A stretch of DNA of 64,000 nt from contig CAYFWJ010000002.1 of assembly GCA_964346755.1 (NCBI GenBank), forward strand, positions 5,939 through 69,938, read 5' to 3'. The notes below the pieces were generated by a model. That model made no database searches and was not told where the DNA came from. It saw nothing but the letters and a program-made list of their open reading frames with translations. The position numbers and the translations under genes are program-made. The first letter of the stretch is position 1, and each line of letters opens with the position of its first letter. This document shows positions 7,216-24,230 of this stretch, piece after piece. The stretch comes from an uncultured Ectothiorhodospiraceae bacterium (GTDB lineage Bacteria > Pseudomonadota > Gammaproteobacteria > CAYFWJ01).

Positions 7216-8234
7216 GTCGAGTCGATCTCGGCTCGAGGGGGGCCTCCTCCTTGGGTTGACTCGGTTGGTCGGTCGGGACGGTGCGGGTTGCCAGGCCCCG
7301 ATCCGGTTGGTGATCGGTCCTCGAATAACGTGGGCAGGATGGTCTCGCATGAACCATCGAGCTTTTCCCACGCGAGGTCGTCCGCTCGGGTCCGTCCGCG
7401 GTTGAGGATCAGGATCGGGATACCGATTTGGGCCGCGTGGCGACAGAAGCGGTACCCTGAGTAGACCATCAGGGACGAGCCCACGACAACCATCAGGTCA
7501 CTCCGCGCGAGGGCTGAGTAGGCTGCGTCGACTCGTTCGCTGGGCATGGATTCGCCGAAGAAGACGACATCCGGTTTGAGCACCCCACGGCACCGTGGAC
7601 AGGCGGGCACTTGAAAGCGTCCGGCGACCGGCTCGCTTCGCTCCGCATCGCCGTCGGGAGCGCTCGGGGCCGGTTCGATGCGGTCCGGTACCCCATTGAG
7701 GTGAGCCAACTGCTCTTGGAAGTCTACGCGGCTCAGTCGGAACGCACAATCGAGGCAAATCACATCCGCGAGTCGTCCGTGGAGTTCCAGGACGTCGGTC
7801 GACCCCGCGGTCTGATGGAGACCGTCGACGTTTTGGGTGACGAGTCGCTCGACCCGGCCTCGGTGCTCCAATCGTGCCAAGGCCGTATGCGCCGAATTCG
7901 GGCGAGCGCGACGCAGCCGTTCCCACCCGACCTGACTGCGGGCCCAGTAGCGTTGCCGAGCCGTTGGGTCAGCAACGAAGGACTGGTACCGCATGGGCTG
8001 CGGTCGTTTCCAATCCCCGCCGGCGTCTCGATAATCCGGTATTCCACTGGGTGTGCTGCACCCGGCCCCGGTTAACACGAAGAGCCGCGTGAACTCCCTC
8101 AGCCGAACCCGAACACGGTCCAGGGCGGTGTGCGACTCGGTCACTGGCCATTGCCCCCGGGTTGGCCCTCGCCGTTGAGCGGGAGCGGCGGTTGGGGGTA
8201 GCGTTCCGGGCGGTTCATGGGTCGCCGGCCTCAC
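7212..8234 (-). CDS. NAD-dependent protein deacylase, Sir2 family (sirtuin)
   Basis: Sirtuin motifs GAGxSxxSGIPDYR, QNVDGLH and a Zn ribbon CxxC...CxxC are present. It has a ~45-aa N-terminal extension and a Pro/Gly-rich low-complexity C-terminal tail. Its start overlaps the upstream ORF by 20 nt. Confidence 0.8.
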   Translation of the reverse strand: MRPATHEPPGTLPPTAAPAQRRGPTRGQWPVTESHTALDRVRVRLREFTRLFVLTGAGCSTPSGIPDYRDAGGDWKRPQPMRYQSFVADPTARQRYWARSQVGWERLRRARPNSAHTALARLEHRGRVERLVTQNVDGLHQTAGSTDVLELHGRLADVICLDCAFRLSRVDFQEQLAHLNGVPDRIEPAPSAPDGDAERSEPVAGRFQVPACPRCRGVLKPDVVFFGESMPSERVDAAYSALARSDLMVVVGSSLMVYSGYRFCRHAAQIGIPILILNRGRTRADDLAWEKLDGSCETILPTLFEDRSPTGSGPGNPHRPDRPTESTQGGGPPRAEIDST

Positions 8235-9117
8235 CGCGCTTCACGGGTAGGTTCAGCGCCTCGCCGAGTCGCTCCAGGGCCGACCAGCCCTGCGCCTCGT
8301 CGGATACGCGAAGGATGGCGATCCGTCCGCCGTGGGGGGCCCCGGCGTCGGTCAAATCCCACTCCAGCTGGATGCCGTCCGCTGCCAATCGGGCCTGTAG
8401 CGCGGTATCCTTTGCGACCGGGCCGCTCGCGTCGGTGAAGCATGAGAAGACATAGCCGCCTGGGGGTGGCCCCCGCTGCGCCCATCGGCCGGTGTCGACC
8501 AGCCGCGCCCAATCGCGCACCCAACCCGGTCCGTAGAACTCGATAAAGGCGTTGGATCCGCGCAGATGGGCCTCGATGACGTAGCCTTGCAGGAGCTCGA
8601 AGTTGGTGATCCCCGTGTAATCCGGCAGATTTGCGGCGATCCATTCGGTTAACTGGGCCTCGATGGCGGGGGCGGAGCCCCCGATGCGCCAATAGACCGG
8701 ACGGGTGTCGACCCGTTGCGGTGAGGCGCTGGTATGGGCGAACCACACGGCCCGCCCCGATTGGACCATAACGTCGGTGCTCGTTTGCTCACCGGTGAGC
8801 AGCTCCGACCAAAAATACCCGGGCTCCTCGGGGATGGCCTCGGCCGAGACGGGGCGGGCCCCCTTGGATAGGCCGAAGAGATTCGTGATGGGCTTGAGGA
8901 AGACGGTCGTCTCCGGGGCGAACCCGTAACGGGCCGGGGGAACGCCCGTCGGCGCCGCCGTGACCCCCTGGGTCAGGGCGAGCTCCAGCTTGTTGTAGAC
9001 CCAACGGTGTCGCGGATTGAGGCGCCAGGCCTCGGCATCGCTGACGCCGATGGCGCGATAGGGCTCTACCTCCGCGAAGATGTGGCGTCGACGCGGCAAA
9101 ATGCCATAGAACGGCAT
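8215..9117 (-). CDS. Hypothetical protein, possibly ATP-grasp-like fold (unassigned)
   Basis: This 300-aa ORF is packed tightly between the Mo-oxidoreductase (4-nt gap) and the sirtuin (20-nt overlap). There are weak ATP-grasp-like segments (FLKPITNLFGLSKGA, IEFYGPG), but no family could be assigned by eye. Confidence 0.55.
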   Translation of the reverse strand: MPFYGILPRRRHIFAEVEPYRAIGVSDAEAWRLNPRHRWVYNKLELALTQGVTAAPTGVPPARYGFAPETTVFLKPITNLFGLSKGARPVSAEAIPEEPGYFWSELLTGEQTSTDVMVQSGRAVWFAHTSASPQRVDTRPVYWRIGGSAPAIEAQLTEWIAANLPDYTGITNFELLQGYVIEAHLRGSNAFIEFYGPGWVRDWARLVDTGRWAQRGPPPGGYVFSCFTDASGPVAKDTALQARLAADGIQLEWDLTDAGAPHGGRIAILRVSDEAQGWSALERLGEALNLPVKRGEAGDP

Positions 9118-9120
9118 CCG

Positions 9121-11226
9121 TCAAACCTTCTCAACGTTGCACAGGGCGGATTTGAAGGGCGGGAAGCCACTGATCGGGTCCAGGGCCCGATCGTCGGTCA
9201 ACTCGTTGACATTGGCCTCGGCCCAGCCATGGAAGCAGTGTACGACCCCTGGCTGGAGACGATCCGTTAGCTCGGCGATGAAGCGGACCGCGCCGCGCTC
9301 CGTGCCGACGCGGACGGAATCGCCGGTCTGAATCCCGCGCGCCGCGGCATCCGTCGGGTGAAGTTGCGCGCGAGGGACGGGGTCCGTCGCCGCAATATGC
9401 GGGACGTTGTGCTGCTGGGAATGGGTGTAGGCCTTGCTGCGCCCCCCCGAGGTCAGGACCAGCGGATAGCGCTCGGCGAGGTCCGGTCGGGAGACCGGGC
9501 TCTCGGCGGGTTCCTGATAGATCGGGAGGCCGTCGTAGCCGGCTGACCGCAACTCCTCGGAATCGAACTCGATCCGCCCGCTCCACGTCGGGAACCCTTT
9601 GACGGTATAGAGTCGATCGGCGTCTTCGAGCTCGGCGAGCATCTCGGTCCAGACCGTCGCTCCCTCGGGGTCGTTGAAGGCGGCATCGCGAATGGATTCC
9701 GGGAGGCCGCTGGCTTGCACGTCGATGGCCGCTTGCAGATTGCCGTGCCAGAACGTTGCCGGGTCCTCGAGGCGACAACCGAGATCGAGAAAGATCTGGG
9801 CGTCGGAACGGGCCTCACCACGCGGGGGGAGAACGGCCTCGCGGTAGCGCACCTCCCCCTTGAATTGACATCCCGGATAGGCAATCAGGGTGGGGCGCTC
9901 AAGGGCCGTGGCTGCCGGCAGCACGAGATCCGCGTGGCGGGTTGCCTCGTTGTGGAAGAAGTCGGTGCAGACGCTGAACTCGAGTTGGTTCAGGCCCTCC
10001 ACGAAGCGACGGGAATTGGGAAACATGGTGCTGTTGATCCCCATCGCGACCAGCCCCCGCAGTCGCGTTGATCCCTCACCCTGCATGCAGTCGTTCATGA
10101 GCATGCTCTGGGCGGCAGGCCAGTAGCGGGTCCAGATCGGGAAGCGATCGTCACCGATTCGGGGCGGTAGTGCCTCGATCCGCTCCTGGAACCGGTCGAT
10201 CGGGGTCGGGGTATACTTGTCCAGGAAGAAACGGTTTCCCCCCTGGTTATCCACGTTACCGGTGGTTGCCGCGAGTAGGATGATGGCCCGATGGTTCTGG
10301 AACCCGTTGCTGTGTTGAACCGTGGCGGTTGGCGAGAGCACCAGTTGGGCGGGGCCTTGCGTTGCGTAGAGTCGAGCGGCCTCTTCGAGTTGCGCCGTCG
10401 GAATGCCGCAGATGGCGGCTGTGCGTTCCGGGGTGAAGGCCTGCACATAGGCTCGAAACGCCTCAACGCCGGTCGCCCACTCCCTGAGCAGGTCCTCGTC
10501 GGCCCAGCCATTGGCGAAGATGACATGGTGCATGCCCAAGGCGAGGGCGCCATCGGTGCCGGGGCGGATCTGCAGATGGAGATCGGCGGCCTCTGCCGTC
10601 TCGCTCCGCCGGGGGTCCACGACCACGAGGGTCCGGCCGGCTCGCTGATCCAAGATGTGATGGCGCTCGTAGGGCATCACCGAGTGGGGCGGATTGGTCG
10701 ACCAGACTATGAGTGTCCGGGTTTGGGGCTGTTCCAGCAGGCTGGAACTCTTCAAACGATACCCGTACGTCAGCTTCTCGGCGACGAGTGTGGCCGAAAA
10801 ACAGCACCCCGACTCCGTCAGATAATTCGGTGAGCCGAAGGTGTGCGCGAGCCGTTGGAGGAAGGGTCTCGCCTCTTTGGTGTAACCGGCGAAGAAGCCG
10901 ACGGATTCCGGCCCATAGCGCTGCCGCAGGTCTTTGAGTCGTTCGGCGATCGTGTCGAGTGCCTCATCCCAGTCAATGCGTTCGAATGCCCCATGACCCC
11001 GCTGGCCGGTCCGTTTGAGCGGGTACAGGAGGCGGTCCGGATGGTTCTGACGGCCGAGCTGCCCGGTGCCACGCAGGCAGGGGGGGCCCTGAAGCCGGCG
11101 GATCGCCCCCGAGGCGTCCCGTTCGACTCGAAAGACACAATTGGCATCGCACTCGTAACACGTGGTGCGTTGGGTAGGAGTCGGTTGGGATTGGTTATCG
11201 CGGAGAGCGGAGGGGGTCGCGCTCAT
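9121..11226 (-). CDS. Molybdopterin-dependent oxidoreductase, MopB (bis-MGD) family, cytoplasmic, with N-terminal 4Fe-4S cysteine cluster
   Basis: N-terminal CxxCxxxC...C cluster (CYECDANCVF...C) followed by molybdopterin oxidoreductase domains (GCPNCx-like region, HNEAT, a C-terminal molydop-binding beta-barrel). No signal peptide. First gene of a three-gene minus-strand operon. Confidence 0.8.
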   Translation of the reverse strand: MSATPSALRDNQSQPTPTQRTTCYECDANCVFRVERDASGAIRRLQGPPCLRGTGQLGRQNHPDRLLYPLKRTGQRGHGAFERIDWDEALDTIAERLKDLRQRYGPESVGFFAGYTKEARPFLQRLAHTFGSPNYLTESGCCFSATLVAEKLTYGYRLKSSSLLEQPQTRTLIVWSTNPPHSVMPYERHHILDQRAGRTLVVVDPRRSETAEAADLHLQIRPGTDGALALGMHHVIFANGWADEDLLREWATGVEAFRAYVQAFTPERTAAICGIPTAQLEEAARLYATQGPAQLVLSPTATVQHSNGFQNHRAIILLAATTGNVDNQGGNRFFLDKYTPTPIDRFQERIEALPPRIGDDRFPIWTRYWPAAQSMLMNDCMQGEGSTRLRGLVAMGINSTMFPNSRRFVEGLNQLEFSVCTDFFHNEATRHADLVLPAATALERPTLIAYPGCQFKGEVRYREAVLPPRGEARSDAQIFLDLGCRLEDPATFWHGNLQAAIDVQASGLPESIRDAAFNDPEGATVWTEMLAELEDADRLYTVKGFPTWSGRIEFDSEELRSAGYDGLPIYQEPAESPVSRPDLAERYPLVLTSGGRSKAYTHSQQHNVPHIAATDPVPRAQLHPTDAAARGIQTGDSVRVGTERGAVRFIAELTDRLQPGVVHCFHGWAEANVNELTDDRALDPISGFPPFKSALCNVEKV

Positions 11227-11685: not shown

Positions 11686-12092
11686 GGCTGGGATCACCCG
11701 GGGGCGGCCGTGGGGAGGCTCGCCGTCCGGGGACGCCGTGGATCCCTTCTTGAAGGCTCGTTGATCGCCATCATCCGGGCGATCAACGCACTCGGCGGCG
11801 AGGCCCCGAACCGCCTCGCCGTCTGACGCCGGATCCGATGGTTAGCCGTTGGGTTGGGTCACCGGAGTTAATCAAGGCAGGGCACGATCCTGACCGAGAG
11901 ACGCGAGCCAACCGACAGGTTGGTCTGTATTCCATCGAACTTCATTTGGTGTGACGAGCCAAAAAATTGGGCAAAACGGTTGAACGGGATCTGGACCGAT
12001 GCCATCGTAATCATATGGAGTCGTACTACACTAACGCTGGGCTAACCGCTCAACGGATCCATCCTTACGTTTTCCGATACGAGGTGATGACT

Positions 12093-12395
12093 ATGCATCA
12101 ATCCGATCGTCGTGCGTTTCTCAAGAAGAGCCTGATCGGTCTGGCTGCGCTGCCCTTCGGCGCTGGCGTTCTGAGCACCCGGGCCCTGGCCGCGGACATG
12201 CCGATGCTGACCGAGGACAACCCCCAGGCGAAGGCCCTCCAATACGCGGCGGATGCCAGCGCGGCCGGTGCTCCCTCGGGCCAGGTCTGCACCAACTGCA
12301 TGCATTACAAAGCAGAGAATCAGGGCTGCGCCCTGTTCCCCGGCTACTCCGTCCACAAGAACGGCTGGTGCTCCGCCTGGGCCGCAGCTTCGTAA
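12093..12395 (+). CDS. High-potential iron-sulfur protein (HiPIP) precursor with Tat signal peptide
   Basis: Twin-arginine motif SDRRAFLKK with an AxA cleavage region, then the HiPIP 4-Cys pattern (CxxCxxY...C...WC). The annotated ORF starts at 11967, but a GAGGTG RBS supports the ATG at 12093 (MHQSDRRAFL...). Confidence 0.85.
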   Translation: MHQSDRRAFLKKSLIGLAALPFGAGVLSTRALAADMPMLTEDNPQAKALQYAADASAAGAPSGQVCTNCMHYKAENQGCALFPGYSVHKNGWCSAWAAAS

Positions 12396-14292: not shown

Positions 14293-15864
14293 ATGCCCGA
14301 TTCGTATATCAAACGCATCCTCAACGCTCGGGTTTACGATGTCGCCATCGAATCCCCGCTGGATCCCCTCCCGCGTTTGTCTCGGCGCCTCGGCAATCCG
14401 ATCACGCTGAAGCGCGAAGATCTCCAACCTGTCTTCTCGTTCAAGCTTCGGGGGGCGTACAACCGAATCCAACGGTTGGTGCAGAGCAGCGGGTCGCCGA
14501 TCGGTGCCATCGTCGCCGCCTCCGCGGGTAATCACGCGCAGGGGGTGTCGTTGGCGGCCCAACGTCTCGGGCTCGAGGCGCTCATCGTGATGCCTCGCAC
14601 GACCCCAGAGATTAAGGTGGATGCGGTCCGTGCCCTCGGCGGGACCCCCATACTGCATGGGGACGGGGTGGACGAGGCCTTCGACAAAGCGAAATCCCTC
14701 CTCGAGGCCGCCCCGGACCGGGTCTTCATCCCGCCGTTCGATGATCCCGATGTGATCGCGGGTCAAGGAACGATCGGCCGGGAGATCCTGCATCAGCATC
14801 GAGGCGATCCGCAGGCGATCTTTGTCCCGGTGGGGGGCGGTGGCTTGATCGCCGGAATTGCCGCCTATGTCAAATATCTGCGACCCGATATTCGGGTCAT
14901 CGGGGTCGAGCCCGACGATGCCCCCACCTTGGCGGTGGCCCTCGAGGCCGGGGAGCCGGTGATGCTTGATCAGGTCGGGTTGTTCAACGACGGGGTCGCC
15001 GTTCGGCGAGTCGGGGTCGAGACCTTTCGCGTTGCCCGTGAGCGGGTGGATGAAGTCGTCCGCGTCACCAGCGATGAGGTGTGTGCTGCGATCAAGGATA
15101 TCTTCGAGGATACCCGGGCGATCGCCGAGCCGGCTGGCGCTTTGGCCATTGCCGGTTTGAAACGGGTCGTGGAGCGCGATGGCCTGCGGGATACCGAGCT
15201 CGTGGCCATCAACAGCGGGGCGAATACGAATTTCGATCGTCTGCGCCACGTGGCCGAGCGGGCCGAACTCGGGGAGCGACGCGAGGCGATCCTGGCGGTG
15301 ACTATCCCCGAGCACTCCGGGAGTTTTCGCAGGTTCTGTCGGGTCCTCGAGCAACGGGCGATTACCGAGTTCAACTATCGCTACGCGGATCCGACGCGTG
15401 CTCACGTCTTCGTGGGGCTGCAATTACGTCACGGCGCGGATGAACGGGTCGCCGTGATCACCGCCCTGCGGGACGCGGGTTATGCCGTGCTCGATCTGTC
15501 CGATAACGAGATCGCCAAATTGCATATTCGCTACATGGTGGGGGGCCATGCGCCCCAAGCCAAGGACGAGCGCATCATTCGATTCGAATTCCCAGAACGG
15601 CCGGGCGCATTACTGCGCTTTCTCGAGACCATGGGAGAAGACTGGAATATCAGCCTATTTCACTACCGTAATCATGGTGCCGCCTACGGCCGGGTGCTTG
15701 CTGGGGTCCAGGTTCCTGAGCCCCAGCAGCAGGCCTTCCAGCGTTTCCTGGGGCAGCTTGGGTATACCTATTGGGAAGAGACCGAGAATCCCGCCTACGC
15801 CTTGTTCCTCGGCCTACAGGAGCACGACCTCAACCTGATCGCCCAAGGGGGTGAATTGACATGA
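14293..15864 (+). CDS. ilvA: Biosynthetic threonine dehydratase (threonine ammonia-lyase) with tandem C-terminal ACT-like regulatory domains
   Basis: PLP-fold region (SFKLRGA, GNHAQG, GGGGL) followed by two regulatory repeats. The true start is MPDSYIKRIL at 14293. The upstream part of the 706-aa ORF (13744-14292) is antisense to rpiA and spurious. Confidence 0.85.
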   Translation: MPDSYIKRILNARVYDVAIESPLDPLPRLSRRLGNPITLKREDLQPVFSFKLRGAYNRIQRLVQSSGSPIGAIVAASAGNHAQGVSLAAQRLGLEALIVMPRTTPEIKVDAVRALGGTPILHGDGVDEAFDKAKSLLEAAPDRVFIPPFDDPDVIAGQGTIGREILHQHRGDPQAIFVPVGGGGLIAGIAAYVKYLRPDIRVIGVEPDDAPTLAVALEAGEPVMLDQVGLFNDGVAVRRVGVETFRVARERVDEVVRVTSDEVCAAIKDIFEDTRAIAEPAGALAIAGLKRVVERDGLRDTELVAINSGANTNFDRLRHVAERAELGERREAILAVTIPEHSGSFRRFCRVLEQRAITEFNYRYADPTRAHVFVGLQLRHGADERVAVITALRDAGYAVLDLSDNEIAKLHIRYMVGGHAPQAKDERIIRFEFPERPGALLRFLETMGEDWNISLFHYRNHGAAYGRVLAGVQVPEPQQQAFQRFLGQLGYTYWEETENPAYALFLGLQEHDLNLIAQGGELT

Positions 15865-16304
15865 GTCCATCCTATTGGATCGCCGTGACCCATCAGAATC
15901 GGCGCGAGATTACCAATCACGCCGGTCGCTGTCGGCGTTTTCGTGCCTATGGGATCGGCGAGGGGCGCATCGTCGAGCAACGGGATTGGGAGATCCCCAA
16001 GGAAGCGACATTGCACGAAAACCACGGCCAGGGGGTGCCGGAGGCCTTCGCGGGTATTCGGGTCCTGATCAGCGCCGGTATGGGACCGGGCCTGGTTCGT
16101 CGGTTAGCAGCGGCCGGGATCGAGGCCTATGTCACCGACACGACGGATCCGGATACGGCCGTTGCCGAGTACCTCGAAGGGACCCTCTCCACGCGGCCAC
16201 CAGGGTGTGCGGAGGATGACCCGGATGCCGCCACGCCCGCGCCCCGAAAGGGCGCCGGTCACGATCCGGGTCACGGGCATGGGGGGTGCGGTCATGCCCA
16301 TTGA
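15861..16304 (+). CDS. NifX/NafY/NifB-C-terminal-like dinitrogenase FeMo-cofactor-binding domain protein with His/Gly-rich C-terminal tail
   Basis: The 147-aa product has the domain pattern (HFGHx-like ENHGQG, then a G-rich ISAGMGPGLVRRLAAAGIEAYV segment) and a C-terminal HDPGHGHGGCGHAH tail. Its start overlaps the ilvA stop (ATGA). Confidence 0.6.
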   Translation: MSPSYWIAVTHQNRREITNHAGRCRRFRAYGIGEGRIVEQRDWEIPKEATLHENHGQGVPEAFAGIRVLISAGMGPGLVRRLAAAGIEAYVTDTTDPDTAVAEYLEGTLSTRPPGCAEDDPDAATPAPRKGAGHDPGHGHGGCGHAH

Positions 16305-16415
16305 TGCCAACGCTCACCCCCGACTCCGGAGTGTGGTGGTGTCCCCTCGCCCCGGTCCGGCCTCCACCCCGGCGGTGTGCGGCCACCGCCTGGCGCGCTG
16401 GATGGGAGGCCCCGT

Positions 16416-17198
16416 ATGAGGCTTGAGGCCTTGTTGCTCGATGTGGACGGGACCTTGGCCGATACCGAACGTCACGGCCATCGCGTCGCCTTCAATCAGG
16501 CCTTCCAGGAAGCGGGATTGGATTGGCATTGGGACGCGGCCCGCTACGGCGAGTTGCTTGCGATCACGGGGGGTAAGGAGCGCATACGGCATTTCGTGGA
16601 GACCGATCGGCCCGAGTGGCCCGATCCCGATGATCCGGCGGCCTTCATCGCCGAGTTACATCGTTCCAAGACCCGGCATTACGTCGCCCTCCTACAACAG
16701 GGGGGAATCCCGCTGCGGCCCGGTGTCGAGCGCCTGCTCAACGAAGCGCGGCGGACCGGAGTGCGTCTGGCGATCGCTACGACCACGACCCCGGAAAACG
16801 TCACGACGCTGTTGACGCATACCCTGGGACCCGATTCCGTGGACTGGTTCGAGGTCCTGGCAGCGGGGGATGTCGTACCCGCTAAGAAACCTGCTCCGGA
16901 TATCTACACATACACCTTAGAGCGAATGGGGCTTCCGCCACAGGGGTGTTTGGCCCTCGAGGACTCGGAGAATGGCCTCACCTCCGCTCGGGCTGCGGGT
17001 GTCCCCACCGTCGTGACGGTCAACGACTACACCCGCGAGCAGGATTTCCGCGGTGCGCTGGCCGTGCTCGATCACCTTGGGGACCCGGGGTGCGATGCCA
17101 ATCGTCTGGATGCGCCGGGCGGGCCGGTGGCTTATGTCGATATCCCGTATCTGGAGGGTCTTTTGAGCCAGGCCAATCGACGGCTGGGGTCGAGCTGA
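16416..17198 (+). CDS. cbbY: HAD-superfamily hydrolase, CbbY-like (putative xylulose-1,5-bisphosphate phosphatase)
   Basis: HAD motif I LLLDVDGTLADTE and a CbbY-like overall pattern. A good GGGAGG RBS precedes the ATG at 16416; the longer ORF starting at 16377 is unlikely. Confidence 0.7.
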   Translation: MRLEALLLDVDGTLADTERHGHRVAFNQAFQEAGLDWHWDAARYGELLAITGGKERIRHFVETDRPEWPDPDDPAAFIAELHRSKTRHYVALLQQGGIPLRPGVERLLNEARRTGVRLAIATTTTPENVTTLLTHTLGPDSVDWFEVLAAGDVVPAKKPAPDIYTYTLERMGLPPQGCLALEDSENGLTSARAAGVPTVVTVNDYTREQDFRGALAVLDHLGDPGCDANRLDAPGGPVAYVDIPYLEGLLSQANRRLGSS

Positions 17199-18743: not shown

Positions 18744-19453
18744 TGGGTCGCGGGGAGACGGGTGTCGGGACTCGAACGGCGTGGCGGACGGCCGAGTCGT
18801 CCGGTGAGGGCGCGGTTAGGATCGAGGCTCGGCCTGCGTGGAGCCACCGGACGGCGCGAGGGCCATCGTGCGCCGATGGTATACCGCTCCGGCCAGGTCC
18901 ACCGCTTGGGCATCGTCCCCCGGCTCGGTAGCCGCCTGGGTGTCATCGAGTCGATCCTGGGGGTCGCGCTAGTCATCGCCCTGGGGCTTGGCCTTCGTCA
19001 CGCGTTCTTGAGGCTTCGGCCGGGTCGTCTCGAAGCCGGTTTCCGGGGCGCGGCAATCCATTTCAACGGTAGCCGGAGGCCCGTCTTCGGTCATCAGCTG
19101 CCGCTGTTGGGCGCAACCCGCGGTCAAGATGGGTCACAGAGGAACAGGCCGCTGGCAAGGATCGCACAGCACGGCGAATCGAGCGGGGCGGGACGAGCGA
19201 CATGGGCGGATACATCTCGTCATAGACGTCGAGCGATTACGGGGGGCCGGTTCGTGGCCGGTGGATCGGTGATCAGCGGCACCATCGGCATGGGATAATA
19301 CCTGACCTGCGGTAAGGGCGCGTGTCATTCAAGGCTCCGCGTTGGTCCGTCGAACGGGGCGGAGGGCCGGTCGGATGCCGCGCTCGGACCAGGGGCTTCG
19401 AGTCCTTCCGAGTATCGGTTATAATCTCGGGTTTATCGTGATCTCGCCGAGAG

Positions 19454-22580: not shown

Positions 22581-24230
22581 GTGCCCGTCGAGTCGCCTTG
22601 TCGCTGGCCCCACGTTATCGTGGTCGGAGTGTTTATGATCCCAATGGACGATGCTTCAACACGTCGAGATTTTGAGCTGCAACACAAGTGTCCGCACCTC
22701 GAAGCCCTGGCGGGAAGGGCCTCCATGGAGGTCATTGACGGGTGCATCGAGCGAATTGCCACCGACAACCGGGCGACCCTTGATTGTACGGCGCGGACCG
22801 AATCCCTTGAAGGCTTTGCCACGGCCTATACGGCGCTTGTGCAACGTTTCTGGTCCGTTGCCCGGCGGGGGCGCGCGGTCTCGAGCGACGAGGAAACAGT
22901 GCGGGGGCGGCTGCGGGACTTGGTTCAGGAGCTGATTGTCGGCTATAACCTGGTGATCAATGACCGCTTGCAACAGGACGCGGTTCCGGATCGCTCGGGG
23001 CTGACCCGGAGCGTCGAGCGTTGTGTGCGTTTCCTCGGTCTACTCGTCGTCGACAGCTACGGTCGGTATCAGGCGCCAGCGGATCGGGTTTGGTACGGCC
23101 TGCACCGTTTCTTCTTGTTCGCCGAGCAACAGGGGATTCAGGATCTGGAAGTTAGTCGTCCGGGCAGCGTCATCCCGAGCAGCATCCTACAGACCTATAA
23201 GCGTATCCTGCTCGTGGCCCTTGCGGATCCCTATCGGTTGGCGCCCGGCGATATCTGGGTGGTTTATCAGCAGCTTGATTACTCGCGATCGTGGGTCGAT
23301 CGGTGCCGGATCGGCGATCAACCCACGGGCGAGGAGAGCTCGGGATTCGTCCTCGATTTGGGGAGCGATGACCGGGCGAAACCGTTGTTGCCGGAAGAAA
23401 AGGCCTTTTTGAAGACCAAGCAGAATCGTCTTGTGGACCTACACGATTTCGTCGATGCCATCGAGGAATCGCTCATGGATCGAGAGCTGAGCCATGAGGG
23501 CAGCGAGGCGACTGGGTCGGCAGAGCGCCAGGGTTCGAATCCGGGCGTCACGATCCCCGAGCGGGGCATTGACGATCGGGTGGGCCAATCGGCTTTGCGT
23601 CGGGCCTTACACAGCTGGCGTCGTTCGGCTCAACGGCAATACCCGCGACAGCCCCGGGAAGATTGGGTGGAGTTGATCATGGGTTTTCGGGGGGTTCAGA
23701 ACTATGTTGACGAATTAGAACAACCCTCCAACGGCAGGGAGCTGCGCAGCCGCTCCGCGTATCGCCGCGGCCGACGATTCTTTCAGCTGATCGACGAGAG
23801 CTCCGGTGGCCTGGGTTTCCATGCACCCAAAAGTCGCATGGGGGAATCGATTCATGTGGGACAAACCGTGCTAAGGACATCCGAATCAAGCTTTAACGAG
23901 CGCTCGCCGGTGCGCTTGGGCGTTATCCGCTGGCTGAATGAACTCGGTGATGACGGGGTCCGCTTCGGTTTGGAACTCTTCGGCGATCAGGTGACGAGTG
24001 TTCAGATCCATCCCTCGGATGCATCGGTCGCAAAACCCATCGTTGGGGTCTACGCGCGATTCAGTATCGTCGATGAGGAGGGGGGGGTAGTGGTTAGTTC
24101 ACCCGGGGTCTACAGTCCAAGCCGTCACCTTGTGCTCGAGCGTCGCAACCAACGGTGGACGGTTTACGCAACGCGCCTCCTCAGTGCAACCATGGATCAG
24201 GAACTCTTCGCCTGCCGTTTGGCCCGCTGA
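22581..24230 (+). CDS. Hypothetical protein (549 aa) with C-terminal PilZ-like motifs (possible c-di-GMP receptor)
   Basis: The ORF is long with GC3-rich codons. The C-terminal third carries RRGRR immediately before DESSGG (RxxxR / DxSxGG-like), followed by beta-strand-like segments (VRLGVIRWL, VRFGLELFGD). The N-terminal ~350 aa are unassigned. The start could instead be an internal Met (MIPMDD...). Confidence 0.5.
   Translation: MPVESPCRWPHVIVVGVFMIPMDDASTRRDFELQHKCPHLEALAGRASMEVIDGCIERIATDNRATLDCTARTESLEGFATAYTALVQRFWSVARRGRAVSSDEETVRGRLRDLVQELIVGYNLVINDRLQQDAVPDRSGLTRSVERCVRFLGLLVVDSYGRYQAPADRVWYGLHRFFLFAEQQGIQDLEVSRPGSVIPSSILQTYKRILLVALADPYRLAPGDIWVVYQQLDYSRSWVDRCRIGDQPTGEESSGFVLDLGSDDRAKPLLPEEKAFLKTKQNRLVDLHDFVDAIEESLMDRELSHEGSEATGSAERQGSNPGVTIPERGIDDRVGQSALRRALHSWRRSAQRQYPRQPREDWVELIMGFRGVQNYVDELEQPSNGRELRSRSAYRRGRRFFQLIDESSGGLGFHAPKSRMGESIHVGQTVLRTSESSFNERSPVRLGVIRWLNELGDDGVRFGLELFGDQVTSVQIHPSDASVAKPIVGVYARFSIVDEEGGVVVSSPGVYSPSRHLVLERRNQRWTVYATRLLSATMDQELFACRLAR

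Follow-up and report, generated by a model that had tools for sequence, protein, structure and literature searches.

A NifX/NafY-fold protein with a His/Cys-rich tail, encoded directly behind ilvA, from an uncharacterised clade of stand-alone PF02579 proteins

Why should a relative of the proteins that carry the nitrogenase cofactor be encoded directly behind threonine dehydratase, in an arrangement so tight that the stop codon of one gene overlaps the start codon of the other? The question is raised by an open reading frame (ORF) at positions 15861..16304 of a 64,000-nucleotide stretch of DNA from an uncultured Ectothiorhodospiraceae bacterium (contig CAYFWJ010000002.1 of assembly GCA_964346755.1), referred to here in its full length as the window. 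A preliminary description of this DNA had proposed that the ORF encodes a NifX/NafY-like domain with a His-rich tail, that it is translationally coupled to ilvA and followed by cbbY, and that it may be a metallochaperone or metal-buffering protein co-opted into an amino-acid biosynthesis transcript. We find that the gene is a new member, from an uncharacterised clade, of the known stand-alone PF02579 kind, and that its position behind ilvA is confined to this organism's lineage. The reading that we favour for its product, with moderate confidence and largely by analogy, is that of a metal or metallocluster carrier, in which a folded core would bind the cargo and a flexible tail would capture it or hand it over.

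The assignment of the domain follows from both sequence profile and predicted structure. The Pfam check of the proposed domain gave a match to PF02579 (Nitro_FeMo-Co) at 45.6 bits, well above the gathering cutoff of 26.3 (E 9e-12), with residues 15-105 covering model positions 3-93 of 94 (91 positions). A single-sequence AlphaFold2 model was poor, with a predicted local distance difference test (pLDDT) score of 65.8 and weak fold matches, and was replaced by a model built from a 70-sequence family alignment. The alignment-based model has a mean pLDDT of 85.7, where 10-residue blocks average 91-97 across residues 1-110 and 53-66 across residues 111-147. When this model was compared with the PDB using Foldseek, the best 15 matches were all PF02579 structures (E 1.5e-5 to 3.6e-4; target-normalised TM-scores 0.50-0.75), and everything further down had E>0.08. 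These matches include PH0822, NifX bound to NifEN, TM1816, MTH1175, TA1041 and MJ0327, along with the NafY core, TM1290 and the Desulfovibrio orange protein. The family profile likewise matches TM1816 at E 1.6e-10 and the NafY core (1p90) at E 7.8e-9. As modelled, the ORF product has the NifX/NafY fold (PF02579).

Within the predicted core, a short motif, H20-A-G22-R-C24, provides the putative ligands. The profile alignment sets the NafY segment GHFGSCLRFLVY (GHFGSCLRF) against the family consensus gHaGrcrrFlvy, so that GHFGSC of NafY corresponds to NHAGRC of the window protein, H20 aligns with NafY His121 and C24 with NafY Cys125 (1p90 chain positions 23 and 27, offset 98), and the His121/Cys125 motif is present. 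In NafY, His121 is a ligand of the cofactor (PMC6428710), while in NifX, His35 ligates NifB-co and the flexible C-terminus docks on NifE (PMC13128457). If the coordinates are extrapolated free of gaps (profile position 4 to chain position 21), the family His would correspond to NifX residue 35. Among the 70 aligned clade members, H20 and G22 are found in 70/70, F27 in 68/70, Q12 in 62/70, H52 in 60/70, R25 in 57/70, N13 in 56/70 and C24 in 54/70, and the window protein has each of these residues. H52 would lie near the putative binding site, and the motif itself sits in a basic, arginine-rich patch (HAGRCRRF) that would suit an anionic ligand.

Beyond the core, the product ends in ...GHDPGHGHGGCGHAH, and the 39 residues after position 108 contain 5 His and 2 Cys, so the metal-binding-looking tail of the preliminary description is indeed there. 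This tail is predicted to be disordered because of the low pLDDT of its blocks. A census of the 147 family members whose core is complete found at least 3 His/Cys after the core in 106 of them, a median His+Cys content of 21% in the tails and 4.8% in the cores, a Cys within the final 10 residues in 72 members and C-x(0-2)-C motifs in 54. Tails range in length from 3 to >100 residues, with GGCGSH, GCGCSH, CGCGGHAH and CNCHH as recurring ends. The His/Cys tail is thus common across the clade and no peculiarity of the window gene. Some relatives are larger: in the set P0014, P0021, P0041, P0072 and P0005, tandem proteins of 300-370 aa pair two PF02579 stretches across long Gly/Cys/His linkers, and one relative carries a fused DUF134 helix-turn-helix domain. 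In composition we take the tail to be similar to the metal-binding tails of SlyD, HypB, UreE and CooJ. The likeness is compositional only, since one long family tail, searched against PDB sequences with phmmer, gave no match.

Several lines of evidence establish that the ORF is a real small gene and more than a chance reading frame. A word-indexed protein search gave 3 relatives, and the family came to light when HMMER was run exhaustively over 1.84 billion cluster representatives, with 340 relatives at E<=1e-3, 92 of them at E<=1e-10, so that the ORF does have a family of its own. The identical protein is present on 6 metagenome contigs, and a 96%-identical metagenome homologue, in which the terminal His/Cys motif is the same, differs by 8 synonymous and 6 non-synonymous changes, giving a ratio of non-synonymous to synonymous substitution rates (dN/dS) of 0.24, where ilvA gives 0.075 and cbbY 0.15. 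A spurious or decaying ORF could be argued from the low sequence complexity of the tail and from a selection test that rests on 14 substitutions only. It is scarcely credible in the face of that dN/dS, a G+C content at third codon positions (GC3) of 0.70 in line with the adjoining genes, a Shine-Dalgarno (SD)-like site, a Pfam score above threshold, a confidently predicted fold and the presence of every clade signature residue.

By sequence similarity, the ORF product is a member of an uncharacterised clade comprising some 340 cluster representatives, whose hosts are mostly sulfur-oxidising and denitrifying beta- and gammaproteobacteria. The clade is recognised by the signature SQN...HAGxCRxF...H52 together with a His/Cys tail, both parts of which are found in the window protein, and our literature search found no study of it. 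A pattern drawn from the 12 closest sequences, scanned against one genome per GTDB species, returned 323 loci, the best of them 51% identical to the window protein and none from the window's own species, with Azonexus, Thiobacillus, Competibacter/Contendobacter, Thiomargarita, Parabeggiatoa, Sulfuricella, Guyparkeria and Accumulibacter as the main genera. Neighbours recurring within three genes were counted at 79 of the 323 loci: a metallo-beta-lactamase (MBL)-fold protein at 15, a divergent FNR-type regulator at 14, cydB at 10, cydA at 9, a methyltransferase and DUF6858 at 7 each, a multihaem cytochrome at 6, and NUDIX, MiaB and a sigma54-PAS activator at 5 each. Neither ilvA, nor a haloacid dehalogenase (HAD) phosphatase such as cbbY, nor any nif gene is among the recurrent neighbours at these loci. 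Canonical FNR boxes upstream of the family genes show at best a weak enrichment, with <=2 mismatches at 14/79 loci against about 6 expected. In an Azovibrio sp. metagenome-assembled genome (MAG), a relative of 48% identity lies within a cytochrome bd operon (L004 4566..8797) of the order cydA, cydB, a bc1-type Rieske paralogue (TIGR01416, 202 bits), the NifX-like gene, cydX and ybgE, while relatives in Competibacteraceae adjoin FNR-type regulators. The neighbours cydAB, Rieske, FNR-type and sigma54-PAS are hints of low-oxygen respiration; no client can be assigned, because the neighbourhoods across the clade are too heterogeneous.

P0004, at 49% identity the closest relative in the family, has a solitary gene, with that of an MscK-type channel on one side and that of a Y1 transposase on the other. 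It is encoded at L090 4529..4963, and also on L091 and L092, has an HHHHHDSDHHH tail and comes from contigs of the same microbial-mat metagenomes. The tetranucleotide correlation of its contig with the window is 0.949, where the other proteobacterial contigs compared give 0.80-0.89 and a same-species contig gives 0.988; P0004 is possibly a paralogue, either from the organism of the window or from a close relative of it. Two adjacent same-strand family paralogues are found in each of a Sulfuricella MAG (L020 4943..5828) and a Sulfurimicrobium MAG (L074 5158..6030). In the Azovibrio MAG, the gene that follows the cytochrome bd operon encodes a multihaem cytochrome.

The ORF product is not part of nitrogenase assembly. 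It passes no NCBIfam model. As NifX proper it scores 18 bits (TIGR02663, E 0.0029) against a cutoff of 112; as NifB, 19.3 bits (TIGR01290) against about 344, over model positions 331-436 only and with the radical-SAM domain absent; and as MrpORP, 31.6 bits (NF041136) against 450, over the C-terminal domain only. The two-domain architecture of NafY is absent as well, the core of the 147-aa protein beginning at residue 5 without an N-terminal SAM-like targeting domain. Neither the window nor the set of recurrent neighbours at the family loci includes an Mrp/NBP35 ATPase partner. The genes around the ORF are rpiA, ilvA, cbbY and xseA, and the window is one of housekeeping: speA, fabAB, an Rrf2 regulator, Sir2, a molybdopterin oxidoreductase, a high-potential iron-sulfur protein (HiPIP), the four genes just named, guaBA, sspAB, petABC, hisCD, lon/clpXP/tig, minCDE, htpG and ffh through rplS. 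No nif gene was found among the 16 window ORFs scanned with Pfam and NCBIfam, the remaining ORFs being identified by eye, and none recurs near the family members. A true nitrogenase cofactor chaperone (a NifX, NafY or VnfX orthologue) displaced from its nif cluster would account for the fold, for the cofactor-binding His and Cys shared with NafY, and for the 'NifX family' and 'nitrogen fixation protein' labels that the JGI and NCBI pipelines give to relatives. It is very improbable given the TIGR02663 score, the missing NafY N-terminal domain and the scans for nif genes, and the genes of relatives adjoin cydAB, FNR-type regulators and MBL-fold genes instead.

At the junction with ilvA, the ORF ATG occupies 15861-15863 and the ilvA TGA 15862-15864, so that the tetranucleotide ATGA is common to both, as the preliminary description had stated, and with an SD-like site just ahead of the start codon, the ORF is translationally coupled to ilvA. 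The upstream gene is a biosynthetic threonine ammonia-lyase scoring 810 bits with NF009130 and 768 bits with TIGR01124 (NCBIfam), with a PALP domain and two Thr_dehydrat_C stretches in Pfam; the same 523-aa product, from the start at 14293, is given by gene callers on same-species contigs. The downstream gene is a genuine CbbY, as had been proposed: it matches CbbY of R. sphaeroides (4uar) at E 3.7e-60 and of Arabidopsis (4uav) at E 1.3e-55, other HAD phosphatase families match only at E 1e-14 or worse, and Pfam reports Hydrolase and HAD_2. The 111-nt spacer between the ORF and cbbY is identical in a sister contig at 102/111 positions. Promoter or terminator sites were looked for between ilvA, the ORF and cbbY and none was found, and the three genes are therefore probably on one transcript. 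Rfam and tRNA scans gave no match near the locus, and a search for FNR boxes found none near ilvA or the ORF.

This gene order does not extend beyond the lineage. The exact protein and its 96% variant were recovered on nine metagenome contigs, all from one organism group; cbbY lies downstream in all eight contigs that reach beyond the ORF, and the longest show the full order rpiA(-)/ilvA/ORF/cbbY/xseA(-)/guaBA. From there, the identity of IlvA homologues falls from 98% directly to 68% (Thiohalobacter, Halothiobacillaceae, Ectothiorhodospiraceae). Three such IlvA relatives at 68% identity keep rpiA(-)/ilvA(+), followed by unrelated genes (EVE, 5-formyl-tetrahydrofolate cyclo-ligase, zapAB), and have neither a PF02579 gene nor cbbY downstream of ilvA. 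A check for conservation of the ilvA-ORF-cbbY arrangement thus yielded only near-identical metagenome contigs of the same organism, and the arrangement is a lineage-specific gene order and does not in itself point to a shared pathway. The IlvA protein of the window is itself unusual in length: at 523 aa it exceeds the 502-512 aa of 110 of the 120 listed homologues, and its 16-residue C-terminal extension is absent in 19/19 non-self homologues whose C-termini were compared, which end in ...LFL or in ...LF plus 0-10 residues. Because this extension encodes the ribosome-binding site of the ORF, it suggests that the IlvA-ORF junction is recent. In the simplest history, the gene, possibly together with cbbY, would have landed directly behind ilvA; the native ilvA stop would have been lost, with IlvA extended by 16 residues in whose codons the ribosome-binding site of the new gene lies; and the two frames would have settled into the ATGA overlap, the ilvA transcript then yielding the protein through translational coupling.

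Two explanations tie the protein to these neighbours. As a partner of the branched-chain amino-acid pathway, it would provide or shield a metal centre required further down the pathway, such as the Fe-S cluster of IlvD or that of LeuCD, or would modulate IlvA itself. The ATGA overlap and internal SD-like site, which force co-expression with ilvA, and the retention of the arrangement in all 9 contigs recovered for the organism group speak for such a role. We consider it improbable, as IlvA uses pyridoxal phosphate and no metal, ilvA is not among the recurrent neighbours of the 79 family loci, the closest family relative stands alone, the gene is absent downstream of ilvA in the three IlvA relatives at 68% identity, and the 16-residue extension points to a recent junction. 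An accessory of CbbY or the Calvin cycle, encoded in an operon with cbbY, is suggested by cbbY itself, which follows on the same strand after a gap of 111 nt that contains no terminator-like site. This explanation is very unlikely: no HAD or CbbY gene recurs at the family loci, CbbY requires only Mg2+, and the nearest IlvA relatives are without both genes at this position. The proposed tie to amino-acid biosynthesis or CbbY is therefore not upheld by the comparison of loci. Of the preliminary description's functional proposal, the metallochaperone or metal buffer is still the most plausible function, and the co-option into an amino-acid transcript comes down to the gene order of one lineage.

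The choice is then mainly one of where the metal would be held. In the carrier reading that we favour, the core would hold a metal ion or a small anionic metallocluster (of the Fe-S or thiometallate type) at His20/Cys24/His52, while the flexible tail would collect metal ions or supply extra (capping) ligands and would pass the cargo on to a client protein. The parallel is with NifX and NafY, in which a single His carries intermediates of the nitrogenase cofactor and flexible termini serve for docking. Several points weigh against this reading: the mechanism rests on homology and composition, with the metal, the cluster and the client all inferred; the context of the clade is heterogeneous, even the commonest neighbour, the MBL-fold protein, being found at 15/79 loci and no pathway being indicated; neither feature is obligatory, Cys24 being absent in 16/70 aligned members and about a quarter of members having His/Cys-poor tails; and translational coupling makes co-expression with IlvA obligatory, so the sequence is compatible with a functional tie. 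It is also possible, although we think it unlikely, that the tail is the functional part and the NifX-like core a scaffold or docking module, the protein being a tail-driven Ni/Zn/Co chaperone or buffer. By analogy with SlyD, HypB, UreE and CooJ, such a tail would bind several divalent ions. It is common across the clade and varies widely in length, as expected of a storage or buffer element; terminal ...GGCGCxH, CxCxH and (HG)n/(HD)n motifs are frequent, which we take to resemble the E. coli SlyD tail and the CxxCGC site of HypB; and TM1816, the best PDB sequence match, likewise ends in HDHHHHEH. The invariant residues (H20, G22) are in the core and not in the tail, however, His/Cys are few or missing in the tails of about a quarter of members, genes for hydrogenase, urease, carbon monoxide dehydrogenase or metal transport are not recurrent among the neighbours at the 79 loci, and the similarity to these tails is compositional. 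More speculatively, the clade could represent an undescribed class of metallochaperone, which would combine a cluster-binding His/Cys pocket of the NafY type with a SlyD-like tail that harvests metal, or with the Gly/Cys/His linkers of the tandem-domain forms, and would serve the metal centres of low-oxygen respiration. The cydAB-Rieske-cydX operon in Azovibrio and the FNR-type neighbours in Competibacteraceae are the hints behind this doubtful proposal, and joined to it, with the same reserve, is the thought that the role might be one of maturation or repair and that one copy has been hard-wired to ilvA expression in the organism of the window.

The coordinates of the locus are collected in Table 1. 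Elsewhere in the window, an FNR-type palindrome with one mismatch, TTGATCGCCATCAT, lies at 11761..11774, upstream of the HiPIP gene (ORF 11967..12395). Matches to TTGATN4ATCAA with <=2 mismatches number 30 in the whole window, against 13.4 +/- 3.5 expected, an excess that is possibly compositional, since many of them contain GATC. Two ORFs have no Pfam match at E<=1e-4: 8215..9117 (-), of 300 aa, between the Sir2 gene and the gene for a cytoplasmic molybdopterin oxidoreductase (9121..11226), and 22581..24230 (+), of 549 aa, homologues of which are tagged FimW_N in precomputed data. A 41-codon ORF between xseA and guaB (L001 5826..5951; about 18990..19115 in the window, minus strand) is called on four sister contigs and has no Pfam match.

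Table 1. Features of the ilvA-ORF-cbbY locus, in window coordinates
Feature	Position	Strand	Details and basis
ilvA, biosynthetic threonine ammonia-lyase	14293..15864	+	523 aa, start MPDSY...; NCBIfam, Pfam and gene calls
IlvA 16-residue C-terminal extension LQEHDLNLIAQGGELT	15814..15861	+	holds the SD-like site of the next ORF
SD-like site AAGGGGGTG	15845..15853	+	7 nt ahead of the ORF ATG; read from sequence
ATGA overlap, ORF start codon and ilvA stop codon	15861..15864	+	read from sequence
ORF, NifX/NafY-fold protein (predicted)	15861..16304, including stop codon	+	147 aa
Folded core, ribonuclease-H-like NifX/NafY/ORP fold (predicted)	15873..16190 (residues 5-110)	+	AlphaFold2, Foldseek
H20-A-G22-R-C24 motif	15918..15932	+	profile alignment to 1p90
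H52, clade-specific conserved His, loop after strand 3	16014..16016	+	His in 60/70 members
C-terminal tail, predicted disordered	16191..16301 (residues 111-147)	+	pLDDT 53-66
Terminal metal-binding-type motif HDPGHGHGGCGHAH	16260..16301	+	in the tail
Spacer between ORF and cbbY	16305..16415	+	111 nt; no promoter-like or terminator-like site
cbbY, HAD-type xylulose-1,5-bisphosphate phosphatase homologue	16416..17198	+	260 aa; start from gene callers

Stand-alone PF02579 proteins outside nif clusters are well known, some of them with His-rich ends; to our knowledge they are common and include several solved structures, with no function assigned. What the clade adds is a definition by the His/Cys motif of the NafY type, a further conserved His and a His/Cys-rich tail found in most members, which provides concrete residues and constructs for work on metal or cluster binding. 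For annotation, labels such as 'NifX family' or 'nitrogen fixation protein' on these genes are misleading. For inference from gene context, a gene that shares ATGA with a housekeeping gene may owe this to a recent accident of gene order and not to a functional link.

The known systems that the window protein most resembles fall on either side of the nif boundary. The core of NafY (Azotobacter vinelandii, 1p90), the FeMo-cofactor chaperone, has the same fold (Foldseek E 2.3e-4, target-normalised TM-score 0.70) and, at about 20% identity, shares the H-x-G-x-C-x-x-F motif; NafY adds an N-terminal targeting domain and works in the nif system, whereas the window protein consists of the core plus a His/Cys tail and has no nif context. 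NifX (9ian, with NifEN), the NifB-co carrier, also has the same fold (Foldseek E 2.5e-5) and is, like the window protein, small and single-domain; NifX has one His ligand and a flexible C-terminus with which it docks (PMC13128457). The NifX tail, in contrast, docks by salt bridges and is not His/Cys-rich, and its gene lies beside nifEN. The stand-alone structural-genomics proteins TM1816, PH0822, MTH1175, MJ0327, TA1041 and TM1290 are the top structural matches, TM1816 (Thermotoga maritima, 1o13/1t3v) being the best PDB sequence match and having its own His-rich end; we take TM1816 and the others to lie outside nif clusters. These proteins have HFGRA (no Cys) where the window protein has HAGRC, are without the SQN and H52 signatures, and come from thermophilic anaerobes and archaea. 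SlyD, HypB, UreE and CooJ resemble the window protein in the tail, through composition, HG/HD runs, ...GGCGCH-like ends and predicted disorder, as we take their sequences to be; their tails sit on unrelated folds (FKBP, GTPase, UreE) with no homology detected, and the Ni-enzyme context of those systems is absent for the window protein. Outside nif, the orange protein ORP (Desulfovibrio, 2wfb; Foldseek E 2.6e-4) shares the fold and binds an anionic Mo/Cu-sulfide cluster without covalent links, and the C-terminal domain of MrpORP (NF041136) is the best NCBIfam match of the window protein. Sigma54-PAS regulators lie near some family members (5 loci), and the orp locus presumably has a regulator of this kind too. 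The hosts of ORP and MrpORP are strict anaerobes, whereas those of the clade are aerobic to microaerobic proteobacteria.

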